Assembly: GCA_044870295.1 (NCBI GenBank)
Contig: JBIOYQ010000021.1
Coordinates: forward strand, 1 to 53,064
DNA length: 53,064 nt
Origin: Actinomycetota bacterium
Lineage (GTDB): Bacteria; Actinomycetota; UBA4738
Direction: 5' to 3'
Below the pieces are notes generated by a model. The model did no database searches. It saw only the letters and a list, made by a program, of their open reading frames with translations, and had not been told where the DNA came from. Both the position numbers and the translations under genes were made by a program. Below, one piece after another: positions 16,560 to 49,998 of the stretch; positions within the stretch are counted from its first letter, which is position 1; the number at the start of each line of letters is the position of its first letter.

Positions 16560-16568
16560 GATCGGCGG

Positions 16569-18797: not shown

Positions 18798-18840
18798 GCC
18801 TGGCACCACCGGATGAAAGGTGCGGCTGGCTCTCCGGAGG

Positions 18841-20079: not shown

Positions 20080-20085
20080 CCAGAC

Positions 20086-31943: not shown

Positions 31944-32152
31944 CGCGCCAGTCTGCGCGCTGTGTCCTCGTCCGATGCCGCTGCTTGCCTGCGCCGGGTT
32001 GCCCAGAGGATCAGGACCAGGCTCACCACGAGGATGGCGACGATCCCCAGGACCCATAGCACAGGAACCCACAGAGGCGTGGTGACCACGTCATGGCATG
32101 GGGCGTTCGGGTGCTTGGGGTCGAACGCGCATGCCGCGAGGATTGACCACAT
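31940..32152 (-). CDS. hypothetical small membrane protein (one TM helix followed by a basic stretch)
   Basis: ORF with PLWVPVLWVLGIVAILVVSLVLILWATRRRQ. Its third positions are G+C-rich and no alternative gene covers the interval. There is no recognisable homology, and the start (ATG 32152 or ATG 32173) is uncertain. Confidence 0.3.
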
Positions 32153-32192
32153 CGAGGGACCTATTCTGCACATCGTGGACCGGACTCAAGCA

Positions 32193-33122: not shown

Positions 33123-33175
33123 GCAGATCGCCGGGGATAGGCCTACACTGGCAGCACGACCCAGGAGGCGAGCAC

Positions 33176-33376
33176 ATGGCAGGTCTTGGTCTCCCCGAAC
33201 TGCTGTTGATCCTCGGCATCGTCCTGTTGCTGTTCGGCTCGAGGAAGCTCCCCGAGCTGGCCAAGTCACTCGGCAAGGCCCAGCGCGAGTTCAAGAAGGG
33301 CATCCGCGAGCAGGACGAGGAGCCGGCGGCTCCGGCGACTCCCGCTTCCACCGCGGACAAGCCCGCCGAGAGCTAA
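33176..33376 (+). CDS. tatA: twin-arginine translocase subunit TatA/E
   Basis: ATG 33176 follows CAGGAGG. MAGLGLPELLLILGIVLLLFGSRKLPELAKSLGKAQREFKKG plus an acidic/proline-rich tail. 66 aa. Confidence 0.9.
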   Translation: MAGLGLPELLLILGIVLLLFGSRKLPELAKSLGKAQREFKKGIREQDEEPAAPATPASTADKPAES

Positions 33377-35460: not shown

Positions 35461-35495
35461 AAAAGAACGGGGCGGCCCCGAATCGGGGCCGCCCC
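35461..35495 (-). terminator. intrinsic terminator closing the pil locus
   Basis: Perfect 12-bp inverted repeat ggggcggccccg / cggggccgcccc (35469-35495) with a 3-nt spacer. On the minus strand it is followed by gTTCTTTT. It lies 62 nt after the stop of the last pil gene. Confidence 0.7.
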
Positions 35496-35556
35496 ACCGG
35501 CGGCCGCTCCCCCCGTCGCGGACGCCGGAACCTACGCTGCCGGTACTAGATGGCCG

Positions 35557-36087
35557 CTACTTGTTCGCGGTTTCACACAGAGTGAAGGATTCACTCTGGA
35601 AAGAGAAATCCGCGCAGGAGCCGCTGATCGAGTTCAAGGTGAAGTCGCCGGCGAAGCTATCGCCTGGTGAGACCGTGTAGACGGTCCCGTCGACCTCCAC
35701 CTGCGCTTGATCCGTTCCGTTGTCGGTGAAGATGTCGATCAGCACGATGGTCTGCCCGTTGAAGGTGGAGCTGGACCCTCCGCTCGGTCCCGAGGACGGC
35801 GTGCCCGCGGGCGCGACGGTGGATCCGGTGCTGGTGACGGGAGCCGGGGTCGTCGGGTTGCAGCAGAACGGGTCACGGCCGGAGAAGACCAGCACCCTCT
35901 TGTGCTTGCCCGTCGGGCTGGGAGAGGGTGCCGGGGCCGGCAGGACGCCGCTCTGGTCCAGGGAGGTCTGGGGGCTGGCCACCGGAGACGAGCCCTTGCG
36001 GACGAACAGGAAGAACGCCGCGACAGCCAGGACCGCTACGGCACCCAGGATGATCCAGGCGCGTCGGTCGCGAGATGACATGGGCAT
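35557..36087 (-). CDS. membrane-anchored protein in the PilP position (PilP-like, tentative)
   Basis: 176 aa. N-terminal TM (AWIILGAVAVLAVAAFFLFV), a Pro/Ser/Thr-rich linker, and a C-terminal beta-rich region of about 70 aa (GQTIVLIDIFTDNGTDQAQVEVDGTVYTVSPGDSFAGDFTLNSI). It starts 4 nt after the pilO stop. Confidence 0.6.
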   Translation of the reverse strand: MPMSSRDRRAWIILGAVAVLAVAAFFLFVRKGSSPVASPQTSLDQSGVLPAPAPSPSPTGKHKRVLVFSGRDPFCCNPTTPAPVTSTGSTVAPAGTPSSGPSGGSSSTFNGQTIVLIDIFTDNGTDQAQVEVDGTVYTVSPGDSFAGDFTLNSISGSCADFSFQSESFTLCETANK

Positions 36088-36090
36088 CGA

Positions 36091-36711
36091 CTAGGCCTCC
36101 GTGGGTGACGGCGCCGGCGTCGGCACGACGGCCGGTGCTTGCTCTTCAGCGCCACCCGGGATGGAGCCCGGGCCCGCGCTGGGATCGGTGGTGAAGAAGT
36201 TCGCCGTGATCGACATCTGGAGCTGCGGCGGCGAGATGGTCTGGTCCAGGGGCGTGACCGTCACGTCCATGACCTTCGACACCCTCGCCAGGTTCTCCAG
36301 CAGGTACAGGTAGTGGTCCAGGGCGAAGAAGGATCCCTTGATGGTGATCTGGATCGGGATCACGCTGATCTGGCCGGAGGCCGTCGGGGCGGCCGGAGCG
36401 AGGGACGCGAAGTCCACGGCCGACTTGTCCGCGGTGCTGTTGAGCGAGCGGATCAGCCCGGGCAGGTCGGCCTCTGGCGGGATCTGGGTCTGCAGCTTGG
36501 CCAGCCGCTTCCGATCCTTCGGGGCGTCCTTCGCCGCTGCCTGGAGCTGACTGAGCTGGAGCTGCAGTTCGTCCTGCTTCGCCACGGCCGCGTCGACGTC
36601 CTTCTGCTTGGAGCGGACCTGCGAGGCCTTCGGCGTGATGAGGCCGACCAGCATGGCCAGGGCCACCGCGACGCCGACCAGGGCCGCTATCAGGGCGGGC
36701 TTCTTGTTCAT
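36091..36711 (-). CDS. pilO: type IV pilus assembly protein PilO
   Basis: ATG 36711 overlaps the pilN stop (ATGA). N-terminal TM, a coiled coil, then IPPEADLPGLIRSLN...IPIQITIKGSFFALDHYLYLLENLARV, which is PilO-like. Confidence 0.8.
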   Translation of the reverse strand: MNKKPALIAALVGVAVALAMLVGLITPKASQVRSKQKDVDAAVAKQDELQLQLSQLQAAAKDAPKDRKRLAKLQTQIPPEADLPGLIRSLNSTADKSAVDFASLAPAAPTASGQISVIPIQITIKGSFFALDHYLYLLENLARVSKVMDVTVTPLDQTISPPQLQMSITANFFTTDPSAGPGSIPGGAEEQAPAVVPTPAPSPTEA

Positions 36712-37391
36712 CGCGGTCCTCCCTGGAGCGTCGCTTCGTTGGTCAGGTCCAAGGACCCGGTCCACTCGATCGTCGTCTCGCCGTTGAGGTCGAACTCCGT
36801 GGCGATGCTGATCCACGGGTTCGCCCACCCGGTCACGTGCTCGACCCTGGTCAGCCACTGGGCCACCGAGGGGTGATCCTCGGCGAATCCCTGGAACTGG
36901 ATGGTGCCGACCAGCGCCGGCCCCACCGGTGCCACGGGCGCCGCCGGGATTGGGGTGGCCCCCGGGCTGGGGGTGGCGCCGGGCTCCGCGGGAGCAGGAG
37001 CCACCGGAACCGCCTCGATCGGCGTGCTCAGAGTGCCTTGCATCCCGCTCAGCCAGACCTTGTCGGGGATGACCATGGAGACGTCCCGGAGGACGCCCGA
37101 CCACAGGACCTCGCCGTCCATGGCCGAGGCGATGAGGGCCTCGCGGGCGGCCACCTGGGCCTTCAGCTGCGCGAACGGTGACAGCTCGTCGATCTGGGAC
37201 TGGACGTCGGCGTTGGTCGCCTCCTGCGCCTGCAGCTTGTGGCTGGCATCGGAGAGCTTGGCGGCCTCCAGCACGTACACGACGAACAGCAGGGCCACCA
37301 CGGCGCCGACGGCCAGGATCACGGCCGCGGTGAGGCGGCGGGTGAGCTGACGTTCCTTGACGTCGCCTGGGAGAAGGTTTACCTGAGTCAT
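36708..37391 (-). CDS. pilN: type IV pilus assembly protein PilN
   Basis: MTQVNLLPGDVKERQ (the conserved PilM-binding INLLP-type N-terminus), a TM helix and a coiled coil. It overlaps the pilM stop. Confidence 0.85.
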   Translation of the reverse strand: MTQVNLLPGDVKERQLTRRLTAAVILAVGAVVALLFVVYVLEAAKLSDASHKLQAQEATNADVQSQIDELSPFAQLKAQVAAREALIASAMDGEVLWSGVLRDVSMVIPDKVWLSGMQGTLSTPIEAVPVAPAPAEPGATPSPGATPIPAAPVAPVGPALVGTIQFQGFAEDHPSVAQWLTRVEHVTGWANPWISIATEFDLNGETTIEWTGSLDLTNEATLQGGPR

Positions 37392-38449
37392 CCACGCACC
37401 CCCGGGAGGGCCAGTCCAACGGCCACCGCGAGCAGGGGCTCGGTCTCAGCCGCGGCTTCCTCGTTCAGATCGAGCGACGGGGACACCCGATGGAACGGAT
37501 GCCCTTCGGACACGGGCACCGGCAGCCGTTCGGCCAGCAGGCGCTGAAGGCCTGGCAGCTTGGATCCGCCGCCGGTCAACAGGACGCGGCCGATCCGGGC
37601 TCCCGGCATCTGTGACTGGTAGAAGTCGAGGGACGACCGGATGTCGTCGGCGAAGGTGGCGGCGCGGGAGAGACCGGCCTTCTCGGCCTGCTCGACCCGA
37701 TCGCCGTGCCCGCCTTCGTGTGCGCCGCGCTTGAGAGACTCTGCCTCGTCGTCCGGCACGCCCAGCGCGCGGGCCACTGCCGTGGTCACGTCGTGGCCTC
37801 CGGACGGGAGGATCCTCACGAAGCGGGGGACGCCCCACGCGTGCACGCAGATGCTGGTCACATCTGCCCCGATCTCCACGATGGCCTCGTCTCCACCGCC
37901 GCTCTCGTCCAGCCCCATGCCGTCGATGGAGCCGACGGAGCGGACGATGGCGAAGGGAACGAGGTCCAGGCCGACCGGGCGAAGCTTGGCCATCTCGGCC
38001 GCCGCGACGATCTGCTGGATCATGCTCTTCTGGGCGGCGACCAGGAGGATGCGAACCATCCGCCGGTCCTCCCGCTCGAACTCCTCGAGAATGTGGAAGT
38101 CCAGCACGGCCTCTTCGACCGGAATGGGGACGAACTCCTGGACCTGGAACGGGAGAGACTCGCGCAGCTCCTTGTCGGCGAGCCACGGCAGGGAGACCTC
38201 GCGGACGACGACTCGCTGGTTGGCCACGCCGAGGACGACGTCCCGCGTACGGAACTTTCCCCGTCGCCACAGCTCGCGGAGGGCGTCGGCGACGGCCGCG
38301 GGGTCGCGAACCTCGCCGCTGCCGACCGCGCCTTCGGCCATGGGGACCTGCGCCACCCGAACCAGCTGCGGCGGGATGCTGCGCATGGAGAGCTCGGCGG
38401 CGCGAACGCCCGTCGATCCGATATCCACCCCGACCCGTACCTGCGGCAT
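37388..38449 (-). CDS. pilM: type IV pilus assembly ATPase-fold protein PilM
   Basis: 353 aa with an actin/FtsA-like fold: VGVDIGSTGVRAAEL, VVLGVANQRVVVREVSLP, VLLTGGGSKLPGL. Confidence 0.92.
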   Translation of the reverse strand: MPQVRVGVDIGSTGVRAAELSMRSIPPQLVRVAQVPMAEGAVGSGEVRDPAAVADALRELWRRGKFRTRDVVLGVANQRVVVREVSLPWLADKELRESLPFQVQEFVPIPVEEAVLDFHILEEFEREDRRMVRILLVAAQKSMIQQIVAAAEMAKLRPVGLDLVPFAIVRSVGSIDGMGLDESGGGDEAIVEIGADVTSICVHAWGVPRFVRILPSGGHDVTTAVARALGVPDDEAESLKRGAHEGGHGDRVEQAEKAGLSRAATFADDIRSSLDFYQSQMPGARIGRVLLTGGGSKLPGLQRLLAERLPVPVSEGHPFHRVSPSLDLNEEAAAETEPLLAVAVGLALPGVRG

Positions 38450-38452
38450 GTC

Positions 38453-38638
38453 CTAGTTCCCTTCGGTCCGAACCGCTCGTTCCTGTAGGTACCGATCCAC
38501 GTCCGATTCCCGGATCCGATAGTTCTTGCCGACCCGGACGGCGGCCAGCTGTCCGCTCTTGATCAGCCGGTACACCGTCATGTTCGAGACCCGCATCGTT
38601 CCAGCCACCTCAGCTACCGTGAGCAGCCGGTCGCCCAC
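38453..38638 (-). CDS. small excisionase-family (Xis/BldC-like) helix-turn-helix DNA-binding protein
   Basis: LLTVAEVAGTMRVSNMTVYRLIKSGQLAAVRVGKNYRIRESDVDRYL. I favour GTG 38638, 6 nt after GGAGG (61 aa); the track start is GTG 38659 (68 aa). The stop lies 3 nt before the pilM start. Confidence 0.8.
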   Translation of the reverse strand: MGDRLLTVAEVAGTMRVSNMTVYRLIKSGQLAAVRVGKNYRIRESDVDRYLQERAVRTEGN

Positions 38639-38759
38639 AAACGGCCTCCGCCTGCCCACCTCTCACAACTCCAACTCTTGCAACACATGCCACATCTGCC
38701 ACAGTCGCAACACCACCATCGTCCTCCTCATCCCTTAACAGGAACCACAAGGGAATCGG

Positions 38760-38788
38760 AGTTAACACCTGTGATCTGGGCATGTCAA
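38760..38788 (-). promoter_or_regulatory. candidate promoter for the HTH-pilMNO unit (TTGACA-17 nt-TTAACT)
   Basis: The minus strand reads cgTTGACAtgcccagatcacaggtgTTAACTcc, inside a visibly lower-G+C intergenic region of about 280 bp (38660-38943). Confidence 0.3.
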
Positions 38789-38943
38789 CGATCTAGTTTT
38801 CGACCACCACCGAGTGAACTTGAACGAATGGCGAGGGAAATCGCCTGCTCATCCCCCAAATGGTTCGAGACGTTCGCCAACTCCTACCGACCATCAGGTA
38901 GCCGACGAGACTGGGGGCGGTTAGGTCGACCGGGGAGGGTCGA

Positions 38944-39720
38944 CTACCGGAGGAAGCTGGTGTACCAGCGGACCACCGGAGGAGCCAGGAAGGCCGCCCA
39001 GACGGCTCCGCCGGCCAGATACGGGCCGAAGGGGACGGTCTGCTTGCGGGTGGCACGGGTGAATGCCAGCAGGGCCACCGCCCCCAATCCCCCGGCCAGG
39101 ATCGCCACGGCGGCCGCCACGGCCACGTAGGACAGACCGAAGGCTCCGAGGACCAGGCCGATCAACGCCGCGAGCTTCACGTCGCCCATCCCCATGCCGT
39201 GCGGCGCGATCAGCGCCACCAGGAACAGTCCCCCTCCATAGGCGAAGAACCCGATCGCCGCCCGGAGCAGGCTGATGGGTTCCCCGGCCAGGACACCCAC
39301 CGCCAGGATGACCGGGAAGGCCAGCAGGCTCGGATAGAGGATCCGGTTGGGCACGATGCGGTGCTCGAGGTCGATCACGGCGACCGCCACCAGGACGGAG
39401 AAGAACAGGGCCAGCACGGCGGTGGCGAAGAGGCTGTCGAACTTGATCGCGGCCGCGGCGAACAGCGCGGCGGTCACCAGCTCGATCAGGAGGTATCTGG
39501 CCGAGATGCTGGCCCCGCACGCCCTGCAGCGGCCACGGAGGAGGAGATACGAGACGATCGGGACGTTGTCTCTGGCTCGGATGAGAGCACCACAGTTCGG
39601 GCAGGCCGACCGCGGCGCGACGATCGATCGACGCGCGGGGACCCGGTGGACCACCACCGTCAGGAACGACCCGAAGGCCAGGCCGAACGCGACGAAGGCG
39701 AGCACGCGCAGGACGACCAT
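38944..39720 (-). CDS. pilD: prepilin peptidase / N-methyltransferase (A24 family)
   Basis: 258 aa, polytopic. N-terminal CPNCG...CRACG zinc motif, and GMGDVKL and GPYLA aspartyl-protease motifs. Confidence 0.93.
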   Translation of the reverse strand: MVVLRVLAFVAFGLAFGSFLTVVVHRVPARRSIVAPRSACPNCGALIRARDNVPIVSYLLLRGRCRACGASISARYLLIELVTAALFAAAAIKFDSLFATAVLALFFSVLVAVAVIDLEHRIVPNRILYPSLLAFPVILAVGVLAGEPISLLRAAIGFFAYGGGLFLVALIAPHGMGMGDVKLAALIGLVLGAFGLSYVAVAAAVAILAGGLGAVALLAFTRATRKQTVPFGPYLAGGAVWAAFLAPPVVRWYTSFLR

Positions 39721-39763
39721 GGTGGAAGCCTACGCGTGCCCGCCGACGCTGATCCAGATCGGG

Positions 39764-41209
39764 TCAGCTGTTCGCGATCTCACGGAGATAGGACGGCTGT
39801 ATGTTGTACCCGAGGAGGTTGAACCCCGGGACCAGGATCGGGACGTAGTTCAGCGTCATCTGGTTGGTGATGGTCACGGTGCCGCCGATGATCTGGCCGT
39901 TCACTCCGTTGGCGTTGTTGTTGCCGAAGTCGACGTTGCACTGGCTGTACACGAACACCTTCAGCCCGTTGTTGAACCCGGTGTTGTTCGACACCGAGAT
40001 GTCGTAGGGCGAGGGCTTGGTGCAGTTCAGCCCCTGGCGGTAGGGCACGACGAAGTAGACCGTCCACTCCCCTCCCACCGCGTTCCAGTTGGTCTGGTTC
40101 ACGGTCGAGATGGCGTGGGTGGCCGAGGTGCCGCCGTCCACGAAGATGGCCAGGTTGCCCTTGACGTTGATCGTGGAGTTGTTGCCCCACGACAGTCCGC
40201 CGGCGGCGCACGTCGGGGTGACCCGGACCACATTGTTCCCGCTGGGGGCCGAGTCGATGAACGCCTTGGCGGTGGCGCAGGTGGCGAACGTGGAAACCGT
40301 GTAGCCCGCGTCGACCCACGCCTGCTGGTTGAAGGTCAGCTGCGGCAGGGAGGTCTGCGGCGGGGGGCCGGAGGGCGAGTTGGCCGTCTTGGTGCCCTTG
40401 ATGGTCCCGCCGCCGATGGTCGTGCCCGCCTTGGCGTTCCCGTCGATGGTCGAGTTGCTGCTCAGGCTGATGTAGGAGGTCGACGAGGTGGTGTTGCCGA
40501 AGACCTCGATCCCGTTGGAGAGCACAGCGTAGTTGTTCGCCCAGACGTCCTGCTTGACGATGCCCTGGGAGATGCTGGCGAACCCCTGCGCGTACGCGCT
40601 GCCGGCGATGACCGTGTTGTTGTTCAGCGCCAGGTTGCCGTTCGTGTAGACATCGGCGTCGTTCGCCTGGTAGCCGTTGGCCGTCAGCTTGTTCAGCAGG
40701 TTGAGCTGAGTGTCGGAGAAGATGGCCTTGTTGAACCCGCCGTAGATCGGGGTCAGCTTGACCTCGCTCTGCATGGTTCGGCTGACGGACACGGGGTTCG
40801 ACGAGGCCACCGCGGTCCCCTTCGACACCACCAGGGCGCCCAGCGGCTGGGTGGCAAGCGGCTGCCCGGGCCCGGGGCACGTGATCTCCGTACCGGGCAG
40901 AGGTGGCCAGGTGGAGTACAGCGTGATGGAGACGTCGAAGGCGGCACCCGGGACGTTGGGCAACGTTCCATCCCACATGGCCGCGTCGCACATGTCGCCC
41001 GTATTGACCTTGGTGATGCCGGAGAACCAGGCGTCGATGCCGGCCTCGGCCGCATCGACCGACTGGATCCGCTTGCGGTCGAACGCGCTGATCTGCGAAT
41101 TGTGCAGCGACAGCGCGATCACGGCCACGCTGATGGTCAGGACCACCATGGAGACGAGCAGGGCGGTGATCATGGCGACCCCGCGCTCCTCGCTGAATCG
41201 TTGAATCAT
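39764..41209 (-). CDS. large PilX-N-terminal-domain-like pilus protein (481 aa)
   Basis: ATG 41209, 6 nt after GGAGG. N-terminus MIQRFSEERGVAMITALLVSMVVLTISVAVIALS is PilX_N-like, with no G/F cleavage site and no Glu5. The long Asn/Gly/Thr-rich C-terminal region reads like a beta-helix. Confidence 0.72.
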   Translation of the reverse strand: MIQRFSEERGVAMITALLVSMVVLTISVAVIALSLHNSQISAFDRKRIQSVDAAEAGIDAWFSGITKVNTGDMCDAAMWDGTLPNVPGAAFDVSITLYSTWPPLPGTEITCPGPGQPLATQPLGALVVSKGTAVASSNPVSVSRTMQSEVKLTPIYGGFNKAIFSDTQLNLLNKLTANGYQANDADVYTNGNLALNNNTVIAGSAYAQGFASISQGIVKQDVWANNYAVLSNGIEVFGNTTSSTSYISLSSNSTIDGNAKAGTTIGGGTIKGTKTANSPSGPPPQTSLPQLTFNQQAWVDAGYTVSTFATCATAKAFIDSAPSGNNVVRVTPTCAAGGLSWGNNSTINVKGNLAIFVDGGTSATHAISTVNQTNWNAVGGEWTVYFVVPYRQGLNCTKPSPYDISVSNNTGFNNGLKVFVYSQCNVDFGNNNANGVNGQIIGGTVTITNQMTLNYVPILVPGFNLLGYNIQPSYLREIANS

Positions 41210-41223
41210 CGCCTTGCCTCCGA

Positions 41224-41898
41224 TCAGTAGGGGGGGATCGACGCGCAGACGTCGCTCGGATAGCCGTATTCGGTGTTCCGACCGGACACGGAGGCCTTGA
41301 TGTTCACGGTCTGGCCGGAGACGCTGTTCTGGTTGACCAGGATGTTCACGACGATCGTCCGGCCACCCTTGTTGGGATCGGGGTCGATGGCGAACGCCGG
41401 CGTGGTCGGCGGGATGGGCGGATTGGGCTGGTTCACGATGTGGTCGGCGATCAGCCGCCAGGGCGACACGTTCCCGTCCACCGACCAGGTGGTCGACCAG
41501 TCGCGCCGTTGGAGCTCTCCCCCCACGATGCGCCACTGGACGCACTTGTTCCCGGGGTTCCGAGTCACCGCGTTGGTTTGGGTGTAGATGAGGAGCGCCA
41601 TGCCCGGATAGATGCTGTTCCCGGCATCGTCCGACCAGGCCTTCCCGGAGAGGCCGGGGTCGTACAGCACGTTGCCGGACCGGATCTCCTTGTCGAGCTC
41701 CTCCACCGCCAGGCGGGCCTGGTCGTTGCTGCCGCTGCGATCGGTCTGGCGATTCAGCGCCCGCTGCATGCCGGTCAGCACGGTCCCGCAGACCACCAGG
41801 ATCACACTCAGGATGGCCAGACCCACCACGAGCTCGATGAGGGTCATGCCTCGTTCGGAGCGTATCCTCCGGCGAACGGCGCCAAGCGCGTGCAGCAC
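41224..41898 (-). CDS. prepilin-type minor pilin (PilW-like)
   Basis: Class III signal RSERG/MTLIELVVGLAILSVIL with Glu5. GTG 41898 lies next to the upstream stop (start uncertain; GTG 41910 is an alternative). Confidence 0.78.
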   Translation of the reverse strand: MLHALGAVRRRIRSERGMTLIELVVGLAILSVILVVCGTVLTGMQRALNRQTDRSGSNDQARLAVEELDKEIRSGNVLYDPGLSGKAWSDDAGNSIYPGMALLIYTQTNAVTRNPGNKCVQWRIVGGELQRRDWSTTWSVDGNVSPWRLIADHIVNQPNPPIPPTTPAFAIDPDPNKGGRTIVVNILVNQNSVSGQTVNIKASVSGRNTEYGYPSDVCASIPPY

Positions 41899-41899
41899 C

Positions 41900-43699
41900 C
41901 TAGGCCCCACTCGGAGCGGGCTGGTAGGTGTTCTGGGCAAGGAGCGTCCCGAGGTCCACGTGCATCGTCAGCGACGCCTGGACCTCGCCGTCGTAGATCA
42001 CGCGATAGAAGATGTTCGCCACGAACGGCGAGTTCGACTGGGCGGTCGCCGCGGTCCGGCTGTTGGGGCACGGCACCGGCGTGCAGGTGAGCACCGTGGC
42101 GGACGTCGACGTTCCCCCGGTGGCCGGGCAACCCAGGACCCAGGCGTTGCAGTCGCTGCTCGGCGAGCCCTGGATGTCGATCTGCAGCACCTTGCCGCCG
42201 ACCGTGTCCGTGATGTGGACCGACGTCACGGGAATGGCCACCGAGGCGCCCGGGGCGACCGCGAGGGCCGTGTATCCAACGCCGTTCCAGTAGCTGATCG
42301 TCCCGCTCGCGGTCACGGACGGGGCGGCCGAGCTGGTGCCGGCCTCGGCCACGACGGTATCGGTGAAGTTTGAGATCGTCACGAGGTATCCGGTCCATCC
42401 GGCCGGGACCTTCGCCGGGTTGAGCCCGGAGGGCAGCCCCCCCACTTGGACTTGGCCGAGCGCCCTGGTCGCGTCGGTGTGGACGAGACCGTCCGCGTTC
42501 GCCTGAATGTCGCGATTGGTGAACGCCTTCGCACCGGAGGGCCAGGCAGCCACCGACGCCAGCGTCGTGCTTCCGAGATCCAGCTTCTTCTTCATCTCGA
42601 GGGTCGCCGACGCCGCGGCCGACTGCTGCTCGGTCGAGTTGCCGCACGCTTGCTGATCGGTCTGGCTGACCCCGGTCAGCGGGCACGGCTTGACGAGGCT
42701 GGCGTCCGTCGTGCTCACGCTGGTGCCGGGATCACCTGAGCTCGGCGTCAGGGTCAAGGTGTTGTTCCCCGCACCGCCCGGGCCGGTGGCGATGGAGCTC
42801 GCGGATCCGGTGACCGAGCTGGTGTTGTAGTCGTTCCCAGGCTGGGCGGGATCGTTGTCGGAGGAGCTGGTCCCCCGCTGCGATCCGGACGTGGTGGCCG
42901 GGTTGCCGGTGAGCGTCAGAGAGGCTCCCGACGCCTCCGTGATGCCCTGGACCGCGCTGATCTGCTCGACCTGCATGGTCGAGCTCCAGTCCGGCAGCAG
43001 GAGGTTCGCCTCGGACAGCGACACGCCGTCGATGGTGCCCGTGATGTCGAAGTGCCCGGCGTCGCCGGTCCCTGTCGCGTAGAAGAAGGGCTGGCACGGA
43101 GCAGCGAAGGGGTGCGTGCCGGTTCCCAGGCACCCACTCCCGGAGTACGCGACGGTCTGTGTCGCAACCTGTGACAGGATGCCCCCCTTCGCCGCGTTCG
43201 GCCAGCTCACCACCACGGTGATCCGGAACGTGTTGTTGGTCGAGATGTTGTTGTAGTAGGTGACATAGGCCCGGGCAGTAAAGAGCGTCGGACCGACGGT
43301 GATCGTCTGCGTGTGCGGCACCAGCGGCACGACGTTGGGGTTGTTCCCTCGAGGGATCTGTTCTCCGCCGTAGCAGTACACCGGGGGCGTTCCGCAGCCA
43401 CTCGTCGTGATGCTCGGGTCGCTCAACGTGGAGAGGTCGCCGTTCGACAGACCCTTCTTGATCACGTCGAACGGCAGGGCCCGCATCTGCTCCATCGTCT
43501 GGTTCGCCAGCCCGGTCGCGGACTGCCGCTGCCTGGCCAGCGCGATGTTCTGGAAGCCGATCGTGGCCGTGTAGGCCAGGGCGAGCAGGACCGTGAGGAT
43601 CACGCCGACGGCGATCATCAGCTCGATCAGCGTGAAGCCGCTCTCCGGCCGGAGGCGGCGGCGGAGGCGGCGCACCAGAGCAGTCAGCAAGCTAGGCAT
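41900..43699 (-). CDS. very large prepilin-type minor pilin (PilV-like N-terminus, 599 aa)
   Basis: ATG 43699. Signal RPESG/FTLIELMIAVGVILTVLLAL, then about 570 aa rich in Ser/Thr/Gly with many cysteines. Confidence 0.78.
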   Translation of the reverse strand: MPSLLTALVRRLRRRLRPESGFTLIELMIAVGVILTVLLALAYTATIGFQNIALARQRQSATGLANQTMEQMRALPFDVIKKGLSNGDLSTLSDPSITTSGCGTPPVYCYGGEQIPRGNNPNVVPLVPHTQTITVGPTLFTARAYVTYYNNISTNNTFRITVVVSWPNAAKGGILSQVATQTVAYSGSGCLGTGTHPFAAPCQPFFYATGTGDAGHFDITGTIDGVSLSEANLLLPDWSSTMQVEQISAVQGITEASGASLTLTGNPATTSGSQRGTSSSDNDPAQPGNDYNTSSVTGSASSIATGPGGAGNNTLTLTPSSGDPGTSVSTTDASLVKPCPLTGVSQTDQQACGNSTEQQSAAASATLEMKKKLDLGSTTLASVAAWPSGAKAFTNRDIQANADGLVHTDATRALGQVQVGGLPSGLNPAKVPAGWTGYLVTISNFTDTVVAEAGTSSAAPSVTASGTISYWNGVGYTALAVAPGASVAIPVTSVHITDTVGGKVLQIDIQGSPSSDCNAWVLGCPATGGTSTSATVLTCTPVPCPNSRTAATAQSNSPFVANIFYRVIYDGEVQASLTMHVDLGTLLAQNTYQPAPSGA

Positions 43700-43762
43700 C
43701 CCGTCCTTCTTTCTCGGTGGCCGGGGGAGCAGTCTTGACCGTCGCACGAGGCCAATCCGCCC

Positions 43763-44263
43763 TCACCAGCCCCCAGTGCATTCGGCCTCGGTATCGACGT
43801 CGGTGAAGACCTGGCTCATGCCCCTGTCGGTGACCGGGCTCCCCGGCACCTGAGACAGGCAGAAGTAGGTACCGGTGTCGGAGAGGGACACCAACAGGAG
43901 GAAGCCGCCGTTGGCGTCCTCGATGTCCACTTCGCCACGGGCGGGAGGACCGGGCGCGACCCATTTGATCGAGGACTCGGCTTGGACCGCCGTCGGGACG
44001 TCGAACCCGGTGTAGACCCCGGTCTCGGCCCAGAAGGTCATGGCGGCGGCCAGCGCCGTTCGAAGGTTCGACTGCGTGGCCTTGTCCTCGGCGCGCTGCC
44101 TGGCCCCGACGAACGTCGGAAGCGCGATCGCGATCAGGAGGCCGATGATCAGCACCACGATCATCAGCTCGATGAGGCTGAATCCCGACTCCGAGGAGGC
44201 CGTGTCGCGTGCCCCTCGCGTCCTGGATCCCCTCGACTCCCCCCGTCGCTTCCAAGAGCTCAT
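43763..44263 (-). CDS. type IV pilin, second paralog
   Basis: 166 aa. 27-aa basic leader, SESG/FSLIELMIVVLIIGLLIAIALPTF, and a C-terminal Cys pair (FCLSQ...AEC). Confidence 0.88.
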   Translation of the reverse strand: MSSWKRRGESRGSRTRGARDTASSESGFSLIELMIVVLIIGLLIAIALPTFVGARQRAEDKATQSNLRTALAAAMTFWAETGVYTGFDVPTAVQAESSIKWVAPGPPARGEVDIEDANGGFLLLVSLSDTGTYFCLSQVPGSPVTDRGMSQVFTDVDTEAECTGGW

Positions 44264-44308
44264 CCTTTTCCTGTCCTTCGTTCCTCGTTCCGTGTCCCGG
44301 TGCGAACA

Positions 44309-44336
44309 GGGGGCGGGTCCCTTGCGGGCCGCCCCC
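44309..44336 (-). terminator. GC-rich bulged hairpin after the first pilin gene (possible partial terminator)
   Basis: The minus strand reads GGGGGCGGCCC-gcaa-GGGaCCCGCCCCC, 30 nt after the pilA stop. No U-tract follows. Confidence 0.35.
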
Positions 44337-44365
44337 CACTCGCCTTGAAACGTGAGTCGCTTGCC

Positions 44366-44863
44366 TTACCAGCTACCGTCGCTCGCAGCGAGTGCCAGGT
44401 TCGGCACGCACGGGTTCGCAACGGCGGATGCCCGGAACGTTCCCAGGGCACCCGGTCCAGCGGACCGGTCGGTCAGGTAGTAGCACGTGCCCGAGGCCGA
44501 GAGCCTCGCGCCCGCCCACACCTGGTCGGCGGCCGCACCGTTGTCACCTTCGGCGAATCCGACCTGGTTGATGACGGCGACGCCACCAGCCACGAAGGTC
44601 AGCGACGGCTCGATGGCCGTCAGCTCCGCGACCGTGTCAGCGCCTGTGTAGTCGTCGAAGTCCGTGTAGGCGGTCTTCGCCGCTGCGATGGCGTTCCGGA
44701 GGTCCGAGGTCGCGGCCTTGTTCTGGGCCCGCGTCCGCGCACCGAGGAACGTCGGCAATGCGATGGCGATCAGGATGCCGATGATCAGAACCACCACCAT
44801 CAACTCGATGAGGGTGAAACCCTCGTCCTCGTGACGCAGCTTCCGCGCGATCTTTTCGATCAT
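44366..44863 (-). CDS. pilA: type IV major pilin (PilA-like)
   Basis: ATG 44863, 8 nt after AGGAGGTGA. MIEKIARKLRHEDEG/FTLIELMVVVLIIGILIAIALPTF and a C-terminal Cys pair (TCYYL...NPC). It is the first pilin gene after pilC. Confidence 0.88.
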   Translation of the reverse strand: MIEKIARKLRHEDEGFTLIELMVVVLIIGILIAIALPTFLGARTRAQNKAATSDLRNAIAAAKTAYTDFDDYTGADTVAELTAIEPSLTFVAGGVAVINQVGFAEGDNGAAADQVWAGARLSASGTCYYLTDRSAGPGALGTFRASAVANPCVPNLALAASDGSW

Positions 44864-45100
44864 GTGATGAATCACCTCCTCTGACATGACCATGACGAAC
44901 GACGTCTCCGCCGTTCTCTTCGGCATGTTTCGGCACCGGACCGAGCCCGATTGAGGGGTCGAATGGTCGGATTTCCTCTCCGCCGAAGGGAGTACGTGCT
45001 GGTAGGTACGGCCAAGCCGGGCGGCGCCGAGAGCCTCCCCCCAGGCCCGGTTTCAGGGCACGCCAATGGCGACGGACTGCGGGAGCGGGTCCGGGCAGGG

Positions 45101-46312
45101 CTACTTGATGAGGTTAATGATGTTGAACATCGGGAGGTACAGGGCGATGACCGCCAGACCGACCGCGCCTCCCACGAAGAAGATCATGATGGGCTCGATC
45201 AGCGAGGTCAGCGCGTCGACCGTTGCGGAGACCTCCTCGTCGTAGAACGTCGCGACCTTGTCCAGCATGGTGTCGATCGACCCGGTCTCCTCACCGACCG
45301 CCAGCATCTGCACCACCATGGGAGGGAAGACCCCGTGCCGGCCCAGCGGCTTGGAGAGCGTCTCTCCCTGCTTCACCGACTGCTGAACGTCCAGGATCGC
45401 CTTGGAGACCTGGGTGTTGTTCACCGTCTCGGCCGTGACCTCGAGGCTGTGCAGGATGGGCACACCGGACTTGCTCAGGACGCCCAGCACCCGGGAGAAG
45501 CGGGCCAACGCCGTCTTGTGGAACAGCGGCCCGAACACCGGGACCTTCAGCTTGAAGGCGTCCCATTGGGCCCGCCCCTGAGGGGTCTTGAAATACCGGC
45601 GCATCAGGTACACGACGATCGCGATACCCGCGATGATGAACAGGCTCTTGTGCACGATGATGTTGCTGATCTGCAGCAGGATCTTCGTCGGCAGGGGAAG
45701 GGTCCCCCCCAGGTTGGTGTAGATGTCCTTGAACTGCGGCACGATGAAAACCAGCATCGCCATGAGGATCAGGGAGACGAATCCCAGGACCACGATCGGG
45801 TACGTCATCGCCGACTTGATCCGCTGGCGCAGAGCCACCTCTCGCTCCAGGTTGAGCGCCAGGCGCTCCAGCACCGACTCCAACACACCTCCGGTCTCAC
45901 CGGAGCGAACCATGGCCACATAGAGGTTGTTGAAGATCTTCGGATACTTGGCGATGGCCGCCGAGAGCGACGCTCCGCGCTCGATCTCCGTCCGGACACC
46001 GACCACGGCGCTGGCGATGATCGAGGACTGGGTCTGCTGCTCCAGGATGGACAGCGCGCGCAGGATGGGCAGCCCGGAGTTCACCATGGTGGCGAACTGC
46101 CGGGTGAACACGGCCATGTCCTTGAGCTTCGCCTTGCGGCGGAAGTTGAACTCCCGCTTCATGCCGCTGCCGCCCTTTTCGCCCACCTTCAGCGGGACGT
46201 AGCCCATCTCTCGCAGGCGGTTGACGACCAGCTGCTCGCTGTCCGCGACCAAGGTCCCACTCACGACCTTCCCCGCCTGGTCGCGAACCCGGTACTCGAA
46301 GGTGCTAGGCAT
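45101..46312 (-). CDS. pilC: type IV pilus platform protein PilC (GspF family)
   Basis: 403 aa with two T2SSF repeats and three TM segments. Confidence 0.95.
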   Translation of the reverse strand: MPSTFEYRVRDQAGKVVSGTLVADSEQLVVNRLREMGYVPLKVGEKGGSGMKREFNFRRKAKLKDMAVFTRQFATMVNSGLPILRALSILEQQTQSSIIASAVVGVRTEIERGASLSAAIAKYPKIFNNLYVAMVRSGETGGVLESVLERLALNLEREVALRQRIKSAMTYPIVVLGFVSLILMAMLVFIVPQFKDIYTNLGGTLPLPTKILLQISNIIVHKSLFIIAGIAIVVYLMRRYFKTPQGRAQWDAFKLKVPVFGPLFHKTALARFSRVLGVLSKSGVPILHSLEVTAETVNNTQVSKAILDVQQSVKQGETLSKPLGRHGVFPPMVVQMLAVGEETGSIDTMLDKVATFYDEEVSATVDALTSLIEPIMIFFVGGAVGLAVIALYLPMFNIINLIK

Positions 46313-47429
46313 TGGCCATCACTCCTGTCCCGCCCGTCGTCATGCGCTCCAACTCCTGTGGGTCGTGGCAGCGCTGCTTGGCCAGCTCCATCGAGATCTT
46401 GCCGTTGGTCACCAGGTAGGCCAGGGCCTGGTCCATGGTGCGCATCCCGTAGCGAGCGCCTGCCTGCATGGCGGAGTAGACCTGGTAGACCTTGGCCTCA
46501 CGGATCAGGTTTCGGATGGCCGGGGTGGTCACCATCACCTCGCATGCCACCACCCGGCCCCGTCCGTCCCAGGTCTGGAGCAGCTGCTGGGTGATGACGC
46601 CCTGCAGCGTCGTCGACAGCTGCACCCGGATCTGCTGCTGCTGGTGGGGAGGGAACGCATCGATGATTCGGTCGATCGTCTGGGGGGCGTCCTGCGTGTG
46701 CAGGGTGGCGAACACCAGGTGACCGGTCTCGGCCGCGGTCACGGCCGTGGAGATCGTCTCGAGGTCCCGCATCTCACCGACCAGGATCACGTCCGGGTCC
46801 TGGCGCAGCACATGCTTGAGGGCGTTGGAGAAGGAATGGGTGTCGGCTCCCACCTCGCGCTGGTTCACGACGGCGCGCTTGTGCCGGTGGAGATACTCGA
46901 TGGGGTCCTCCACCGTCATGATGTGGACCTCGCGCTCGGTGTTCACCACATCGATGAGCGAGGCCAGGGTGGTGGACTTCCCCGACCCGGTGGGGCCGGT
47001 CACCAGGACCAGGCCACGAGGGAGGCGGGCGAAGTCACCACACTGCGGCGGCAGCCCGAGCTCGTCGACCGTCCGGATCACGAAGGGGATGAACCGGAAG
47101 GCCGCGCCCAGAGCGTCGCGCTGGAAGTACACGTTGACTCGGAACCGCCCGCGTCCGGGGAGTGAGTATGAGAGGTCCAGCTCCAGGTCCTGCTCCAGCC
47201 GTTCCCGCTGGCGCTGGGTGAGGATCGCGTAGATCATCCGGCGGACCTGGTCGGGCTCCAGGATCTCGTACTGATCGAGGGGCTTGAGGTCGCCGTGGAT
47301 CCGCACCGTGGGCTTGGCCCCCACCGTGACGTGCAGGTCGCTCGCGTCCAGGGCCAGCACGTGACCCAACAGCTCCTGGATGGGGACTGAGGGGACCTCC
47401 CCGTCCCGGTTCATCAGCTCGGCCTTCAT
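46305..47429 (-). CDS. pilT: twitching-motility retraction ATPase PilT
   Basis: 374 aa: DLHVTVGAKPTVRIHG, Walker A GPTGSGKSTT, Walker B ILVGEMRD, AIRNLIRE. Confidence 0.95.
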   Translation of the reverse strand: MKAELMNRDGEVPSVPIQELLGHVLALDASDLHVTVGAKPTVRIHGDLKPLDQYEILEPDQVRRMIYAILTQRQRERLEQDLELDLSYSLPGRGRFRVNVYFQRDALGAAFRFIPFVIRTVDELGLPPQCGDFARLPRGLVLVTGPTGSGKSTTLASLIDVVNTEREVHIMTVEDPIEYLHRHKRAVVNQREVGADTHSFSNALKHVLRQDPDVILVGEMRDLETISTAVTAAETGHLVFATLHTQDAPQTIDRIIDAFPPHQQQQIRVQLSTTLQGVITQQLLQTWDGRGRVVACEVMVTTPAIRNLIREAKVYQVYSAMQAGARYGMRTMDQALAYLVTNGKISMELAKQRCHDPQELERMTTGGTGVMANA

Positions 47430-47483
47430 ACACCTATCCCTTCAGAGCCAGGCATGGGACTGTTCCTCGGATGCATCGGCACG

Positions 47484-49202
47484 TCAGGTCACGACCCGTA
47501 GCACTTCTTCCACAGAAGTCACGCCCAGTCGGACCTTTTCCAGGCCGTCCTCCCGCAGCGTGACCATCCCGTCCCGCCGGGCCGAGCGTCGGATCTCCTC
47601 GGAGGCCGACCGCTCCACCGTCATCCGCTCGATCTCCTCGCTCATCGGCATGACCTCGTAGAGCCCCAGCCGGCCGCGGAATCCGGTCTTCGAGCACGCG
47701 GTGCATCCCACGGGGCGGAACAGCTCCTTGACGTCGTCCCACACGAACTCGGGGAACCCGGCAGCCTCCAGCTCGGCCACCGTCGGCTTGTAGGGCTCCC
47801 GGCACTTGTTGCAGAGCTTCCGGGCCAGTCGCTGGGCCACGATGCAGTCGATGGCGCTGGCCACGAGGTACGGCTCCACGCCCATCTCCACCAGGCGGGG
47901 CAGGGACGAGGGGGCGTCGTTCGTGTGCAGCGTGGACAGGACCAGGTGGCCCGTCAGGGCCGCCTCGATGGCGATCAGGGCCGTCTCGCGGTCCCGGATC
48001 TCCCCCACCAGGACCACGTCGGGGTCGGCTCGAAGGATGGACCGGAGGGCGGAGGCGAAGGTGAGCCCGGCCCGATTGTTCATCTGCATCTGGTTGATGC
48101 CCGACAGCCGGTACTCGACCGGGTCCTCGACCGTGATGATGTTCCGGTCGGTCTTGTTGATGATGTTGAGGGTGGCGTACAGGGTGGTGGACTTCCCCGA
48201 ACCCGTCGGACCCGTGACCAGGATGGCCCCGTAGGGCCTGGTGAACGCCTCCTGGAACCGCTTGAAGGGTCCGTCCAGGAACCCCAGCTCTTCGAGCTTC
48301 AGCAGGACGGCGCTCTTGTCCAGGATCCGGATGACCACCTTCTCTCCGTACACGGTGGGCAAGGTGGCCATCCGGAGGTCCACGCTCTTGCCGCCCACGG
48401 TCAGGCCGACGCGACCGTCCTGGGGAACCCGTCGCTCGGCGATGTTGATGTCGGCCATGACCTTGAGGCGGCTGATCAGACCAGCCTGGATGTTCTTCGG
48501 TGAACGCATCACCTCCGTGAGCACGCCGTCGATTCGGTAGCGGATCCGCACGTCTCGCTCCATGGGCTCGATGTGGATGTCCGATGCGCGGTCGGCGATG
48601 GCTTGGCTGATGAGGAGGTTCACCATCTTGACGATGGGTCCCTCCTCGATGGCGGCCGCGGCCTTCTCCAGCTCCTTCAGGTCCTCCTCGGCCGTGGCCG
48701 AAGCCTCCGTCGCCATCTTCTGGACGGACTCGTCCAGGCGGCTGTACTTCCGGATGGCCCCTTCGATGTCGGCGGCCGTGGCGACCACCGGCTGGACCTC
48801 CATGCCGGTGATCGTCCGGATGTCGTCCAGCGCGAACAGGTTGGCGGGATCCGCCATGGCGACCAGGAGCCGGTCCTCCTCGTAGCCGATGGGCAGCGCC
48901 CGGTATCGCCTCGCCACCTGCTCCGGGATCAGCATGGCCGCGGTGCCGTCGATCTGGAAGTCGGAGAGGTCGACGAAACGGAACCCGATCTGCTTGGCCA
49001 GCGCGGCCATCAGATCGGACTCCCGGACCATCTTCAGGTCGATCAGGATGCGGCCCAGGAGCTGGTCGGTCCGGCTCTGCTCCAGCAGGGCCTTCTCGAG
49101 CTGTTCCGCGGAGATGAGACCCTCCTCGACGAGGATCTCCCCGAGCTTCTTGGTCTTTCGTCCGCCGCCGGAGATCGGCGCCGACGTCATGTCACGGCTC
49201 AT
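47484..49202 (-). CDS. pilB: type IV pilus extension ATPase PilB (GspE family)
   Basis: 572 aa. N-terminal T2SSE_N-like domain, Walker A GPTGSGKSTT, and a tetracysteine motif (CNKC...CTAC). Confidence 0.95.
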   Translation of the reverse strand: MSRDMTSAPISGGGRKTKKLGEILVEEGLISAEQLEKALLEQSRTDQLLGRILIDLKMVRESDLMAALAKQIGFRFVDLSDFQIDGTAAMLIPEQVARRYRALPIGYEEDRLLVAMADPANLFALDDIRTITGMEVQPVVATAADIEGAIRKYSRLDESVQKMATEASATAEEDLKELEKAAAAIEEGPIVKMVNLLISQAIADRASDIHIEPMERDVRIRYRIDGVLTEVMRSPKNIQAGLISRLKVMADINIAERRVPQDGRVGLTVGGKSVDLRMATLPTVYGEKVVIRILDKSAVLLKLEELGFLDGPFKRFQEAFTRPYGAILVTGPTGSGKSTTLYATLNIINKTDRNIITVEDPVEYRLSGINQMQMNNRAGLTFASALRSILRADPDVVLVGEIRDRETALIAIEAALTGHLVLSTLHTNDAPSSLPRLVEMGVEPYLVASAIDCIVAQRLARKLCNKCREPYKPTVAELEAAGFPEFVWDDVKELFRPVGCTACSKTGFRGRLGLYEVMPMSEEIERMTVERSASEEIRRSARRDGMVTLREDGLEKVRLGVTSVEEVLRVVT

Positions 49203-49220
49203 GTCGGGGGCTCCATCACG

Positions 49221-49910
49221 TCACCGCTCGCCCTCATCGCCCTGGCGCTCGTCGAACAGCCCGGCGAACTCCCGGTTCAGAGCAGCCCGGTCGACCTCCC
49301 ATCCAGCACGCGTCTCGCGCGGCCGGACGTCCGGACCCTCCTCGGCAGCGGGCGTGCTGACCTCCCCGGCCTGCTCGTTCTCGCCCTGGCCGGCCCGAAG
49401 GGCCTGCTCCCGCAGACGCTCGACCCAACTCGAGACGGCGAGCTGCTCCAGGGATGGCCGCGGCGACGCCTCGGCCTGACCGGGCTGCGCGCTGTCCTCG
49501 CGAGGCGCGGGGTGCAACGCCGTGCGCGGCCCACGGGCCGGCTCCGGGGTGGCCTCCTTGTCGTGCGACGGGCGAATGGCTTCCTTCCGGACCCGCGCCT
49601 CCTCCGTCGCCAGCAGCAGCTGGTCGAGCGCGTCGAGGACGATCCCGGCCCTGGCCGAGGGGTGGCCGGTGGCCAGCGCGCTGTACGGACCCCGGCGAGA
49701 GAACGCCCACACCTCGTCGCGCATGCCGACGAAGCCCCGTTCCACGTCTCCGAGCGCCGCCATCCGCGACCATACCGTCAGCGCCTTCTCCTCTTCTGAG
49801 GGCGGGTAGGCGCCCAAAGCCAGTCCATCCCGCGACACGACCAGGCAGGCGCGAACGTCGGCGACGCCCGACACCACCGCCATTGCGAGGGCAGCGAAAT
49901 CGACTGACAT
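49221..49910 (-). CDS. Roadblock/LC7-like (MglB-like) domain protein with a long acidic, apparently disordered tail (tentative)
   Basis: The N-terminal ~100 aa (VVSGVADVRACLVVSRDGLALGAYPPSEEEKALTVWSRMAALG...SALATGHPSARAGIVLDALDQLL) follow the Roadblock pattern v.Gv.ga.lvsrDGl.la. The remainder is Glu/Pro/Arg-rich. The start is ATG 49910 or TTG 49925. The stop lies 18 nt before pilB. Confidence 0.55.
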   Translation of the reverse strand: MSVDFAALAMAVVSGVADVRACLVVSRDGLALGAYPPSEEEKALTVWSRMAALGDVERGFVGMRDEVWAFSRRGPYSALATGHPSARAGIVLDALDQLLLATEEARVRKEAIRPSHDKEATPEPARGPRTALHPAPREDSAQPGQAEASPRPSLEQLAVSSWVERLREQALRAGQGENEQAGEVSTPAAEEGPDVRPRETRAGWEVDRAALNREFAGLFDERQGDEGER

Positions 49911-49998
49911 GGGTTCCCTGCCCAAGTTCTCGGCTTGGTGCCCTAGGCGCTTGAGAGCACGCCCCCCGGGCGACCCACTGCCGTCGGGCGGAGAGCCG

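Follow-up and report, generated by a model that had tools for sequence, protein, structure and literature searches.

The 53,064-nucleotide stretch of Actinomycetota bacterium DNA analysed here (assembly GCA_044870295.1, contig JBIOYQ010000021.1; hereafter the window) carries a complete type IVa pilus (T4aP) gene set, namely 15 co-oriented minus-strand genes at positions 35557-49910 with mltG on one side and pepQ on the other. This is very likely the chromosomal T4aP locus of an uncultured soil actinobacterium, presumably a monoderm, vertically inherited in its ancestral position, and working and evolving as proposed below. Gene identities, synteny, promoter-motif matches and protein folds are what the analysis shows, and from these we infer piliation and retraction, dependence on the sigma factor WhiG, control by cyclic di-GMP (c-di-GMP) and the roles of the PilP-like, Roadblock-fold and helix-turn-helix (HTH) proteins. 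We regard the locus as neither a novel island nor a hybrid machine, but as the standard monoderm T4aP of its lineage in its standard place.

Position of the locus

Gene identities were taken from Pfam and NCBIfam scans of open reading frames (ORFs) selected by GC content at third codon positions (GC3) and from the translations; the Pfam scans took in these ORFs, i.e. most of the window and not every stretch of it, and this scope holds for the negative domain results given below. From high to low coordinate the gene order is alaS (partial), ruvX, mltG (49999-51045), the 15 genes of the pil locus, a terminator, pepQ, efp and nusB. A preliminary description of the window had listed 15 co-oriented genes on an actinobacterial backbone; all of them were found on the minus strand with essentially the same coordinates, and the housekeeping gene content of the rest of the window confirmed the backbone. 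As that description had also reported, the scanned ORFs contain no aro gene and none for a secretin (pilQ), pilY1, pilZ or pilSR.

The description had further placed the pil genes in this slot instead of the shikimate (aro) genes, i.e. in an unusual position, and this did not survive a comparison of synteny. The same locus occupies the same slot in related Actinomycetota, in several cases alongside aroE or aroC-aroK-aroB-aroQ, and the architecture is standard for the lineage, with the order of 13-15 genes found again on 10 or more independent contigs that represent several classes. Soil metagenome contigs from JGI that are identical in PilC carry the identical locus and add, beyond alaS, only an aldo-keto reductase, PhyH and an M20 peptidase. 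The nearest species-level genomes, the “Actinobacteria bacterium” metagenome-assembled genomes (MAGs) AC_48 and AC_52 (PilC 81-82% identical), have the same gene order with proteins 55-88% identical. Among more distant lineages, the Acidimicrobiia MAG L007 reads alaS-ruvX-mltG-pilB-pilT-pilC-pilins-pilD-pilM-pilN-...-orf176-like-pepQ-efp-nusB; in the “Actinomycetes” MAGs L015 and L045 the locus follows alaS-ruvX-mltG, and L015 continues into pepQ; in the Solirubrobacterales MAGs L011, L012 and L039 it lies directly after ruvX and/or mltG, the available sequence stopping before pepQ. The divergence runs in parallel in backbone and pil proteins: relative to L007, identity is 47% for alaS, 59% for PilB and 53% for PilC.

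Several of these loci carry aro genes on one or both sides; a position of pil between aroE and aroC-aroK-aroB-aroQ was assigned to L015, L045, L047, L048, L052, L011 and L039. In L015, aroE follows mltG, and aroC, a fused aroK/aroB and aroQ precede pepQ; in L039 and L011, aroE lies between mltG and pilB. In L047/L048 (GCA_037024495.1, GCA_037024575.1) and L052 (a 1.14-Mb contig), pilC-pilA-pilA-~600-~210-~470/590-pilD-HTH-pilM-N-O-orf176-like (numbers are residues) leads into aroC-aroK-aroB-aroQ-pepQ-efp-nusB, and aroE lies between mltG and pilB. In the closer relatives L049/L050, L051 and L053 the PilP-like gene passes straight to pepQ, with no aro genes and with tatA after nusB, and L007 also has the aro-less version of the slot. 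Since the same slot is used across lineages and aro genes flank it, we read the pil locus as having long occupied the slot by vertical inheritance, in the midst of the shikimate cluster. Judged from gene order, the derived state of this clade appears to be that the aro genes were lost or moved from the slot, and that of Mycobacterium tuberculosis that the pil genes were lost from it. No tRNA genes, att-like repeats or integrase domains (the last sought in the scanned ORFs) mark the locus.

A horizontally acquired island was considered and rejected, given the lack of integrase, tRNA and att-like repeats and the conservation of the slot across classes. As a separate observation, aroK and aroB of L015 form one ORF of 546 residues (18671-20311 of that contig) and are separate genes in L047 and L052.

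Pilus proteins

All features of the locus given below lie on the minus strand. The extension ATPase PilB (47484-49202) matches Pfam T2SSE (E=2.8e-143, 477 bits) and MshEN (E=4.6e-23, 81 bits) above cutoff. Its residues 19-71 pass NF053729, the curated model of the MshE-type c-di-GMP-binding motif (65.5 bits, cutoff 38), and the motif KLGEILVEEGLISAEQLEKALLEQ agrees with the pattern RLGxx...Q, which we take to be that of MshE-type c-di-GMP binding. The retraction ATPase PilT (46305-47429) scores 479 bits against TIGR01420 (pilT_fam, cutoff 319) and has the AIRNLIRE motif in its translation. The platform protein PilC (45101-46312) matches T2SSF (PF00482) in two stretches (E=4.5e-63, 211 bits), its best NCBIfam model being PilC, and the prepilin peptidase PilD (38944-39720) carries A24_N_bact (E=1.9e-33) and Peptidase_A24 (E=6.9e-16) domains, PF06750 and PF01478 both being above cutoff.

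N_methyl (PF07963) was found above cutoff in four proteins, and class III cleavage motifs (G↓F/M-x-x-x-E) are visible in the translations. For the pilin PilA1 (44366-44863; N_methyl E=1.5e-8), ATG 44863 is preferred over the alternative start at 44926 because a GAGGAGGTGA ribosome-binding site, invariant in five lineages, precedes it; the leader and cleavage site then read MIEKIARKLRHEDEG↓FTLIELM. PilA2 (43763-44263) is a tandem paralog with an N_methyl domain and 73% nucleotide identity to pilA1 over 180 nucleotides. Three prepilin-like proteins follow. The minor pilin of 599 residues (41900-43699) combines N_methyl with a weak PilV-type N-terminus and is possibly a tip or adhesin pilin; orthologs of 600-630 residues occur in L047, L051 and L053, and the gene is absent in L049. 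The second, of about 224 residues (41224-41898; N_methyl E=1.8e-6), was called in the metagenome with 207 residues and without a leader, and its likely start GTG 41898 restores the leader peptide. The third, of 481 residues (39764-41209), has no Pfam match in the window and a prepilin-like N-terminus ...EERG↓VAMITALLV without Glu5; its orthologs match PilX_N below threshold (E=2e-4 to 1.6e-3) and show weak signals of a beta-solenoid, a pattern suggestive of a capping pseudopilin of the PilX/GspK type. Since the close relatives L049 (5291-7148) and L050 (1940-3797) lack the genes for the proteins of ~600, ~210 and ~480 residues between pilA2 and pilD, the three large minor pilins would constitute a dispensable accessory module, which may form a tip or adhesin complex.

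The genes after pilD and the HTH gene encode PilM (37388-38449; PilM_2 E=7.6e-48; TIGR01175 201 bits, cutoff 133), PilN (36708-37391), which is recognised by an N-terminal VNLLP motif and its position between pilM and pilO and whose orthologs in L051 and L053 give weak PilN matches, and PilO (36091-36711; PF04350 E=9.9e-17). The last gene of the locus, orf176 (35557-36087), encodes a transmembrane anchor, a Pro/Ser/Thr linker, an invariant RDPF motif and a C-terminal HR-type beta domain, some 65 residues long and carrying two invariant cysteines, which AlphaFold predicts with a predicted local distance difference test (pLDDT) score of ~95. The membrane anchor is a transmembrane helix and not a lipobox. 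Foldseek gave as best PDB matches the PilP protein of Neisseria meningitidis (2ivw) and the GspC HR domain bound to GspD (3oss_C), followed by Pseudomonas aeruginosa PilP (2lc4, 2y4y, 2y4x), 4av2_M and GspB (4wfw), with probabilities of 0.9-1.0 (0.93-1.00 for those other than 4wfw), but with E-values that are weak (0.07-0.7) for so small a domain; the superposition on 3oss_C has a TM score of 0.76 (normalised to the target) and a root-mean-square deviation of 2.2 Å over 61 residues. Among 32 relatives of orf176, 11 match TIGR03021, the NCBIfam PilP model, at E<=0.01 (best 4.9e-6) and none matches Pfam PilP. The homolog in the closest MAG, L006, looks frameshifted, and its contig ends soon after.

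A comparable protein was seen in diderm loci. In the Nitrospirota contigs L009 (18278-20128) and L010 (18266-19817) the gene after pilO encodes a small lipoprotein that has RDPF motifs and resembles orf176 in its C-terminal segment; a confirmed secretin lies directly after it in L009, the L010 counterpart being a close homolog cut by the contig end. These two proteins and that of Omnitrophota L014 (16098-16532) give only weak T2SSB (GspB) matches and none to Pfam PilP. Among diderm loci, L009, L010, L014 and L016 all have the RDPF motif in their PilP-position proteins, and it may be a general mark of such proteins. The label “PilP-position protein” used in the preliminary description is thus supported by a PilP/GspC-HR fold and sub-threshold TIGR03021 matches, and on the predicted structure orf176 is best called PilP-like by fold, architecture and position, rather than a proven family member. 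We consider it, as a guess, a stabiliser of PilNO.

At the head of the locus lies orf229 (49221-49910), with an N-terminal Roadblock/LC7-fold domain (residues ~1-112), a disordered linker and a VDxxxLxREFAGL motif conserved at the C-terminus. An unchanged MSVDF opens the protein in 32 homologs, which moves the gene boundary from 49925, as first proposed, to ATG 49910. The protein has no Pfam or NCBIfam match at E<=0.01, Pfam Robl_LC7 included. In the AlphaFold model, built on a 32-sequence alignment, residues 1-112 have pLDDT >90 and the order alpha-beta-beta-alpha-beta-beta-beta-alpha, and Foldseek yielded 90 matches at E<=1e-3 for this domain, the first being a Roadblock/LC7 protein of Streptomyces avermitilis (3kye, E=1.7e-6) and further top matches archaeal Roadblock proteins, LAMTOR and MglB. 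The earlier label “Roadblock-like” is hence borne out at the level of fold and not by Pfam. Profile searches of the orf229 and orf176 families against PDB sequences returned chance-level matches only, and no MglA-like GTPase was found near orf229 when the window genes were scanned for GTPase domains. A role of orf229 as regulator or adaptor of the ATPases is a guess.

Predicted regulation

The division into three units separated by two intergenic gaps, as described earlier, holds: both gaps are real, the 237-bp gap following from ATG 44863 as the start of pilA1. Actinobacterial promoters of WhiG, which belongs to the sigma-28 family, have been searched for with the strings T(A/C)AA-N16-GCCGA and CTCA-N16-17-GCCGA (bioRxiv 10.64898/2026.01.14.699351). 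The first string has three exact matches in the 53-kb window (0.55 expected), of which two are intergenic, in the correct orientation and less than 200 bp from a start codon, one ahead of each of the first two units. TCAA-N16-GCCGA at 49930-49954 lies upstream of orf229 and pilB and is conserved in L049, with equivalent sites preceding pilB in L007, L015, L045 and L039. CTCAA-N16-GCCGAAAC at 44930-44954 lies upstream of pilA1; among the five lineages aligned, its TCAA and GCCGA are exact in four (being kept in L005, L006 and L049), and L047 has an exact GCCGA with an imperfect -35 element. A stricter pattern, TCAA-N15-17-GCCGAWA, missed this second promoter, which the published query recovered. 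Moreover, WhiG-type sites precede pilB, pilA, pilD or pilM in loci of Acidimicrobiia, “Actinomycetes” and Solirubrobacterales.

The gap between pilD and the HTH gene holds a sigma-70-like element, TTGACA-N17-TTAACT (38760-38788), which was found by alignment, its TTGACA being kept in L006, L049 and L047; a sigma-70 consensus scan of the locus called nothing, this element included. It is followed by an upstream ORF of 18 codons, MVVLRLWQMWHVLQELEL (38663-38719), with its own strong GAGGAGGA ribosome-binding site. This mini-ORF is in frame with the HTH start, separated from it by the stop codon and one codon, and is kept in L006 and L049, an arrangement that suggests translational coupling or a leader peptide. 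The HTH gene (38453-38659) encodes a predicted DNA-binding protein of 68 residues of the excisionase-family HTH_17 type (PF12728 E=6.9e-16; TIGR01764 65 bits), which scores well below the cutoff of the BldC model (29 bits, cutoff 77). Its identity is 74-98% across lineages where that of PilM is 32-90%: it is 98.5% identical to the L049 protein (PilN 72%) and 74-90% identical to those of other classes (PilM 32-59%). The gene is tandemly duplicated in L047 (7243-7646) and L048. We guess that it is a transcriptional regulator of the pilMNOP unit.

The locus closes, as had been noted, with a strong intrinsic terminator (35461-35498), a GC-rich hairpin and U-tract reading GGGGCGGCCCCG-AUU-CGGGGCCGCCCC followed by UUCUUUU (-42.5 kcal/mol, z -2.56).

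Remainder of the window

The housekeeping backbone comprises pyrR-pyrB-pyrC-carAB-pyrD-pyrF, mihF, gmk, rpoZ, coaBC, metK, priA, def, fmt, rpe, a gene for a response-regulator-GGDEF protein, ribD/E/BA, infC, rpmI and pheS. The response-regulator-GGDEF (diguanylate cyclase) gene (10359-11288, minus strand) lies about 24 kb from the pil locus and might have a part in the control of PilB and WhiG by c-di-GMP, a link that we put forward as a proposal only. Between nusB and pyrR, tatA and an ADP-ribosylglycohydrolase gene (31962-33376, plus strand) are encoded on the opposite strand. This region is shared by the aro-less relatives, with both genes in L049 and L053 and tatA only in L051; in L047 and L052, which contain aro genes, a small unannotated ORF takes the place of the two genes. 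In addition, metK and coaBC are separated by a long ORF with BNR/Sortilin-Vps10 repeats (15279-18797, plus strand) that runs counter to the otherwise co-oriented backbone, and an ORF of 581 residues (3045-4790, minus strand) joins a SpoU/TrmH-type RNA methyltransferase (residues 101-348) to a HisKA/HATPase_c histidine kinase (372-577), so that one has to do with an unusual fusion or else with a frameshift that escaped detection.

Discussion

The proteins of the locus can be arranged into a working model. PilD would cleave the class III leaders of the two paralogous pilins and the three minor pilins, and PilC, PilM, PilN, PilO and the membrane-anchored PilP-like protein would form the assembly platform in the cytoplasmic membrane, where PilM, if diderm systems are a guide, is expected to bind PilN at its N-terminal VNLLP motif. 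The fibre would be polymerised by PilB and retracted by PilT, and a secretin would be unnecessary because there would be no outer membrane; in monoderms a secretin is not required (PMC6916266). Expression would proceed from three units: Roadblock-pilB-pilT-pilC and pilA1 through pilD, each from a WhiG/sigma-28-type promoter, and mini-ORF-HTH-pilMNOP from the sigma-70-like promoter. Control by c-di-GMP would probably be twofold: transcription would respond by way of the RsiG-WhiG switch, WhiG being released for transcription when c-di-GMP is low, and PilB would respond by way of its MshE-type N-terminal motif, where bound c-di-GMP would adjust extension. As to descent, the ancestral order would have been aroE-[pil]-aroC-aroK-aroB-aroQ, from which this clade would have lost or moved the aro genes and mycobacteria the pil genes.

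Three other explanations were weighed. That the pil locus was acquired and pushed the shikimate genes out of the mltG-pepQ slot, which would make its placement unusual, appears highly improbable: at least four divergent Actinomycetota lineages use the same slot, several of them with aroE on the upstream side of pil and aroC-K-B-Q on the downstream side, the divergence of backbone proteins is matched by that of the pil proteins, and no integrase domain (in the ORFs scanned), tRNA gene or flanking repeats accompany the locus. In its favour stand the aro-less set of scanned window ORFs and the slightly lower GC content at 38-48 kb. The machine could also be mainly a DNA-uptake (competence) or secretion-type filament and not a twitching or adhesion pilus. 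PilB is indeed near GspE (619 bits against a model cutoff of 630), T4aP serve DNA uptake in many bacteria (PMC6370729) and function is not readable from sequence; however, PilT and PilMNO are T4aP hallmarks, the window has neither comEA, comEC and dprA nor GspC, GspD and GspL, monoderms are not expected to have a type II secretion system (PMC10191384), and one studied actinomycete T4aP, that of Actinoplanes in so far as it is relayed in PMC8325347, mediates adhesion. We hold this function to be unlikely as the main one.

The PilP-like protein raises the question of the envelope. The PilP/GspC HR domain binds the N0 domain of the secretin in all characterised systems, orf176 has the PilP/GspC-HR fold, and a similar RDPF-HR protein directly precedes the secretin in the diderm loci L009 and L010 (the L010 copy cut by the contig end), all of which would suit an outer membrane or a channel in an outer layer that is encoded elsewhere and to which orf176 links PilNO as in diderms. 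Against this stand the transmembrane helix that anchors orf176 in place of a lipobox, and the lack of a Secretin domain in the window ORFs scanned and within ~10 kb of the locus in the actinobacterial loci examined. Moreover, the neighbours of the window are Actinomycetota, a monoderm phylum apart from the mycolata. We give such an envelope very little credence, and the preferred explanation remains the vertically inherited T4aP locus of a presumed monoderm.

Several observations weigh against this preferred explanation or loosen parts of it. The monoderm envelope is an assumption taken from taxonomy, and the loss or relocation of the aro genes is read from the slot and the window. The GC content is 0.64-0.67 at 38-48 kb, i.e. 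within the pil region, compared with 0.68-0.72 in the flanks, thus 2-4 points lower (window ~68%). PilB falls 5.5 bits short of the TIGR02538 equivalog (670.1 bits, cutoff 675.65) in a full-length alignment, PilN stays below threshold for PF05137 (19.5 bits, cutoff 22.8), and so does orf176 for TIGR03021 (E=9e-5, 23.5 bits, cutoff 34.65). Alignment of the orf176 family by hhalign with four PilP-position proteins of diderm loci was not significant (E=0.085), and the PilP-likeness is for this reason argued from fold, the sub-threshold TIGR03021 matches, the RDPF motif and gene position. The third gap, between pilD and the HTH gene, has no WhiG motif; neither whiG nor rsiG is in the window, so WhiG dependence is proposed from the motifs only. 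Two public soil “RNA-Seq” runs gave mostly 90-95% matches to conserved ATPase segments of other organisms, the sole exact match in both being one identical 178-nucleotide contig (44854-45031) from libraries whose type is guessed. This contig covers the start of pilA1 and, upstream of it, the region with the predicted promoter; were it RNA, transcription would enter from upstream of the predicted start site.

Secretin-less monoderm T4aP are already known, as are T4aP clusters of Actinomycetota, some of them studied (Actinoplanes, Rubrobacter). We found no earlier description of a PilP-fold protein in a system that lacks the secretin, of a Roadblock-fold gene at the head of a locus, of a near-invariant HTH protein with a leader mini-ORF, or of pil genes nested inside a shikimate cluster; a literature search on pilMNOPQ-aroKB synteny found nothing. 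Any lone pilD-like remnants beside aro genes in pilus-less actinobacteria would be explained by this nesting. A PilP-fold protein without a secretin bears on the question whether PilP is a linker to the secretin only or a true assembly factor (PMC6916266, PMC10191384). Furthermore, the WhiG/c-di-GMP-type promoter pattern on pil genes is extended to uncultured soil lineages.

One may go further and, tentatively, see in the locus a relic of a diderm-type pilMNOPQ-aroKB arrangement in which the secretin was lost, the PilP-type HR protein, probably carrying a disulfide bond, was kept with a transmembrane anchor, and the Roadblock and HTH/mini-ORF genes are lineage-specific regulators; we regard this as possible and somewhat doubtful. 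If true, PilP would have a role in the PilMNO platform independent of the secretin, and the linkage of pilMNOP with shikimate genes would be older than the split of Actinomycetota and Proteobacteria.

Comparison with known systems

Secretin-free T4aP that combine PilMNO with PilT are well known from monoderms (PMC3244431, PMC6916266, PMC6668835, PMC10191384). The preliminary description had singled out the combination of PilMNO(P) and PilT without an outer-membrane channel; the combination is present, but it is the norm of monoderm T4aP and not notable (PMC6916266, PMC3244431, PMC6668835). With the systems of Clostridium perfringens, C. difficile and Streptococcus sanguinis (PMC6916266) the locus shares PilB, PilT, PilC, PilD and PilM/N/O in clustered genes, more than one major-type pilin together with minor pilins, and the lack of secretin and outer-membrane parts. 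In contrast to them, it has a PilP/GspC-HR-fold protein after PilO, PilP being absent from monoderm systems according to reviews (PMC6916266), a Roadblock-fold gene at its head and an HTH_17 gene before pilM, and its PilO is not enlarged relative to PilN (206 and 227 residues).

Regulation of type IV pili by WhiG-type promoters has been reported for Rubrobacter radiotolerans and R. xylanophilus (PMC8325347) and for Actinoplanes missouriensis and others (bioRxiv 10.64898/2026.01.14.699351). These WhiG/RsiG/c-di-GMP clusters have in common with the locus the phylum, pil genes in two to three units headed by T(A/C)AA/CTCA-N16-17-GCCGA promoters and a link to c-di-GMP, whereas here the promoters are motif matches, the third unit has no WhiG motif and the window has no whiG or rsiG. 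Compared with PilP and the GspC HR domain (2ivw, 2lc4, 2y4y, 3oss_C), orf176 has a transmembrane anchor and is not a lipoprotein, has two invariant cysteines, no secretin partner and sub-cutoff scores; what it shares with them is a small beta-sandwich, the position after pilO and the layout of anchor, linker and domain.

The nearest parallel to the position of the locus is hofMNOPQ-aroK-aroB of Escherichia coli K-12. In the related actinobacterial loci there is no pilQ and aroC precedes aroK, and the window itself has no aro genes in the slot; L015, L047 and L052 share with E. coli the placement of pilM-N-O-P directly before shikimate genes including aroK-aroB. T4aP genes are nested in the shikimate cluster over several classes of Actinomycetota, an arrangement that echoes hofMNOPQ-aroKB.

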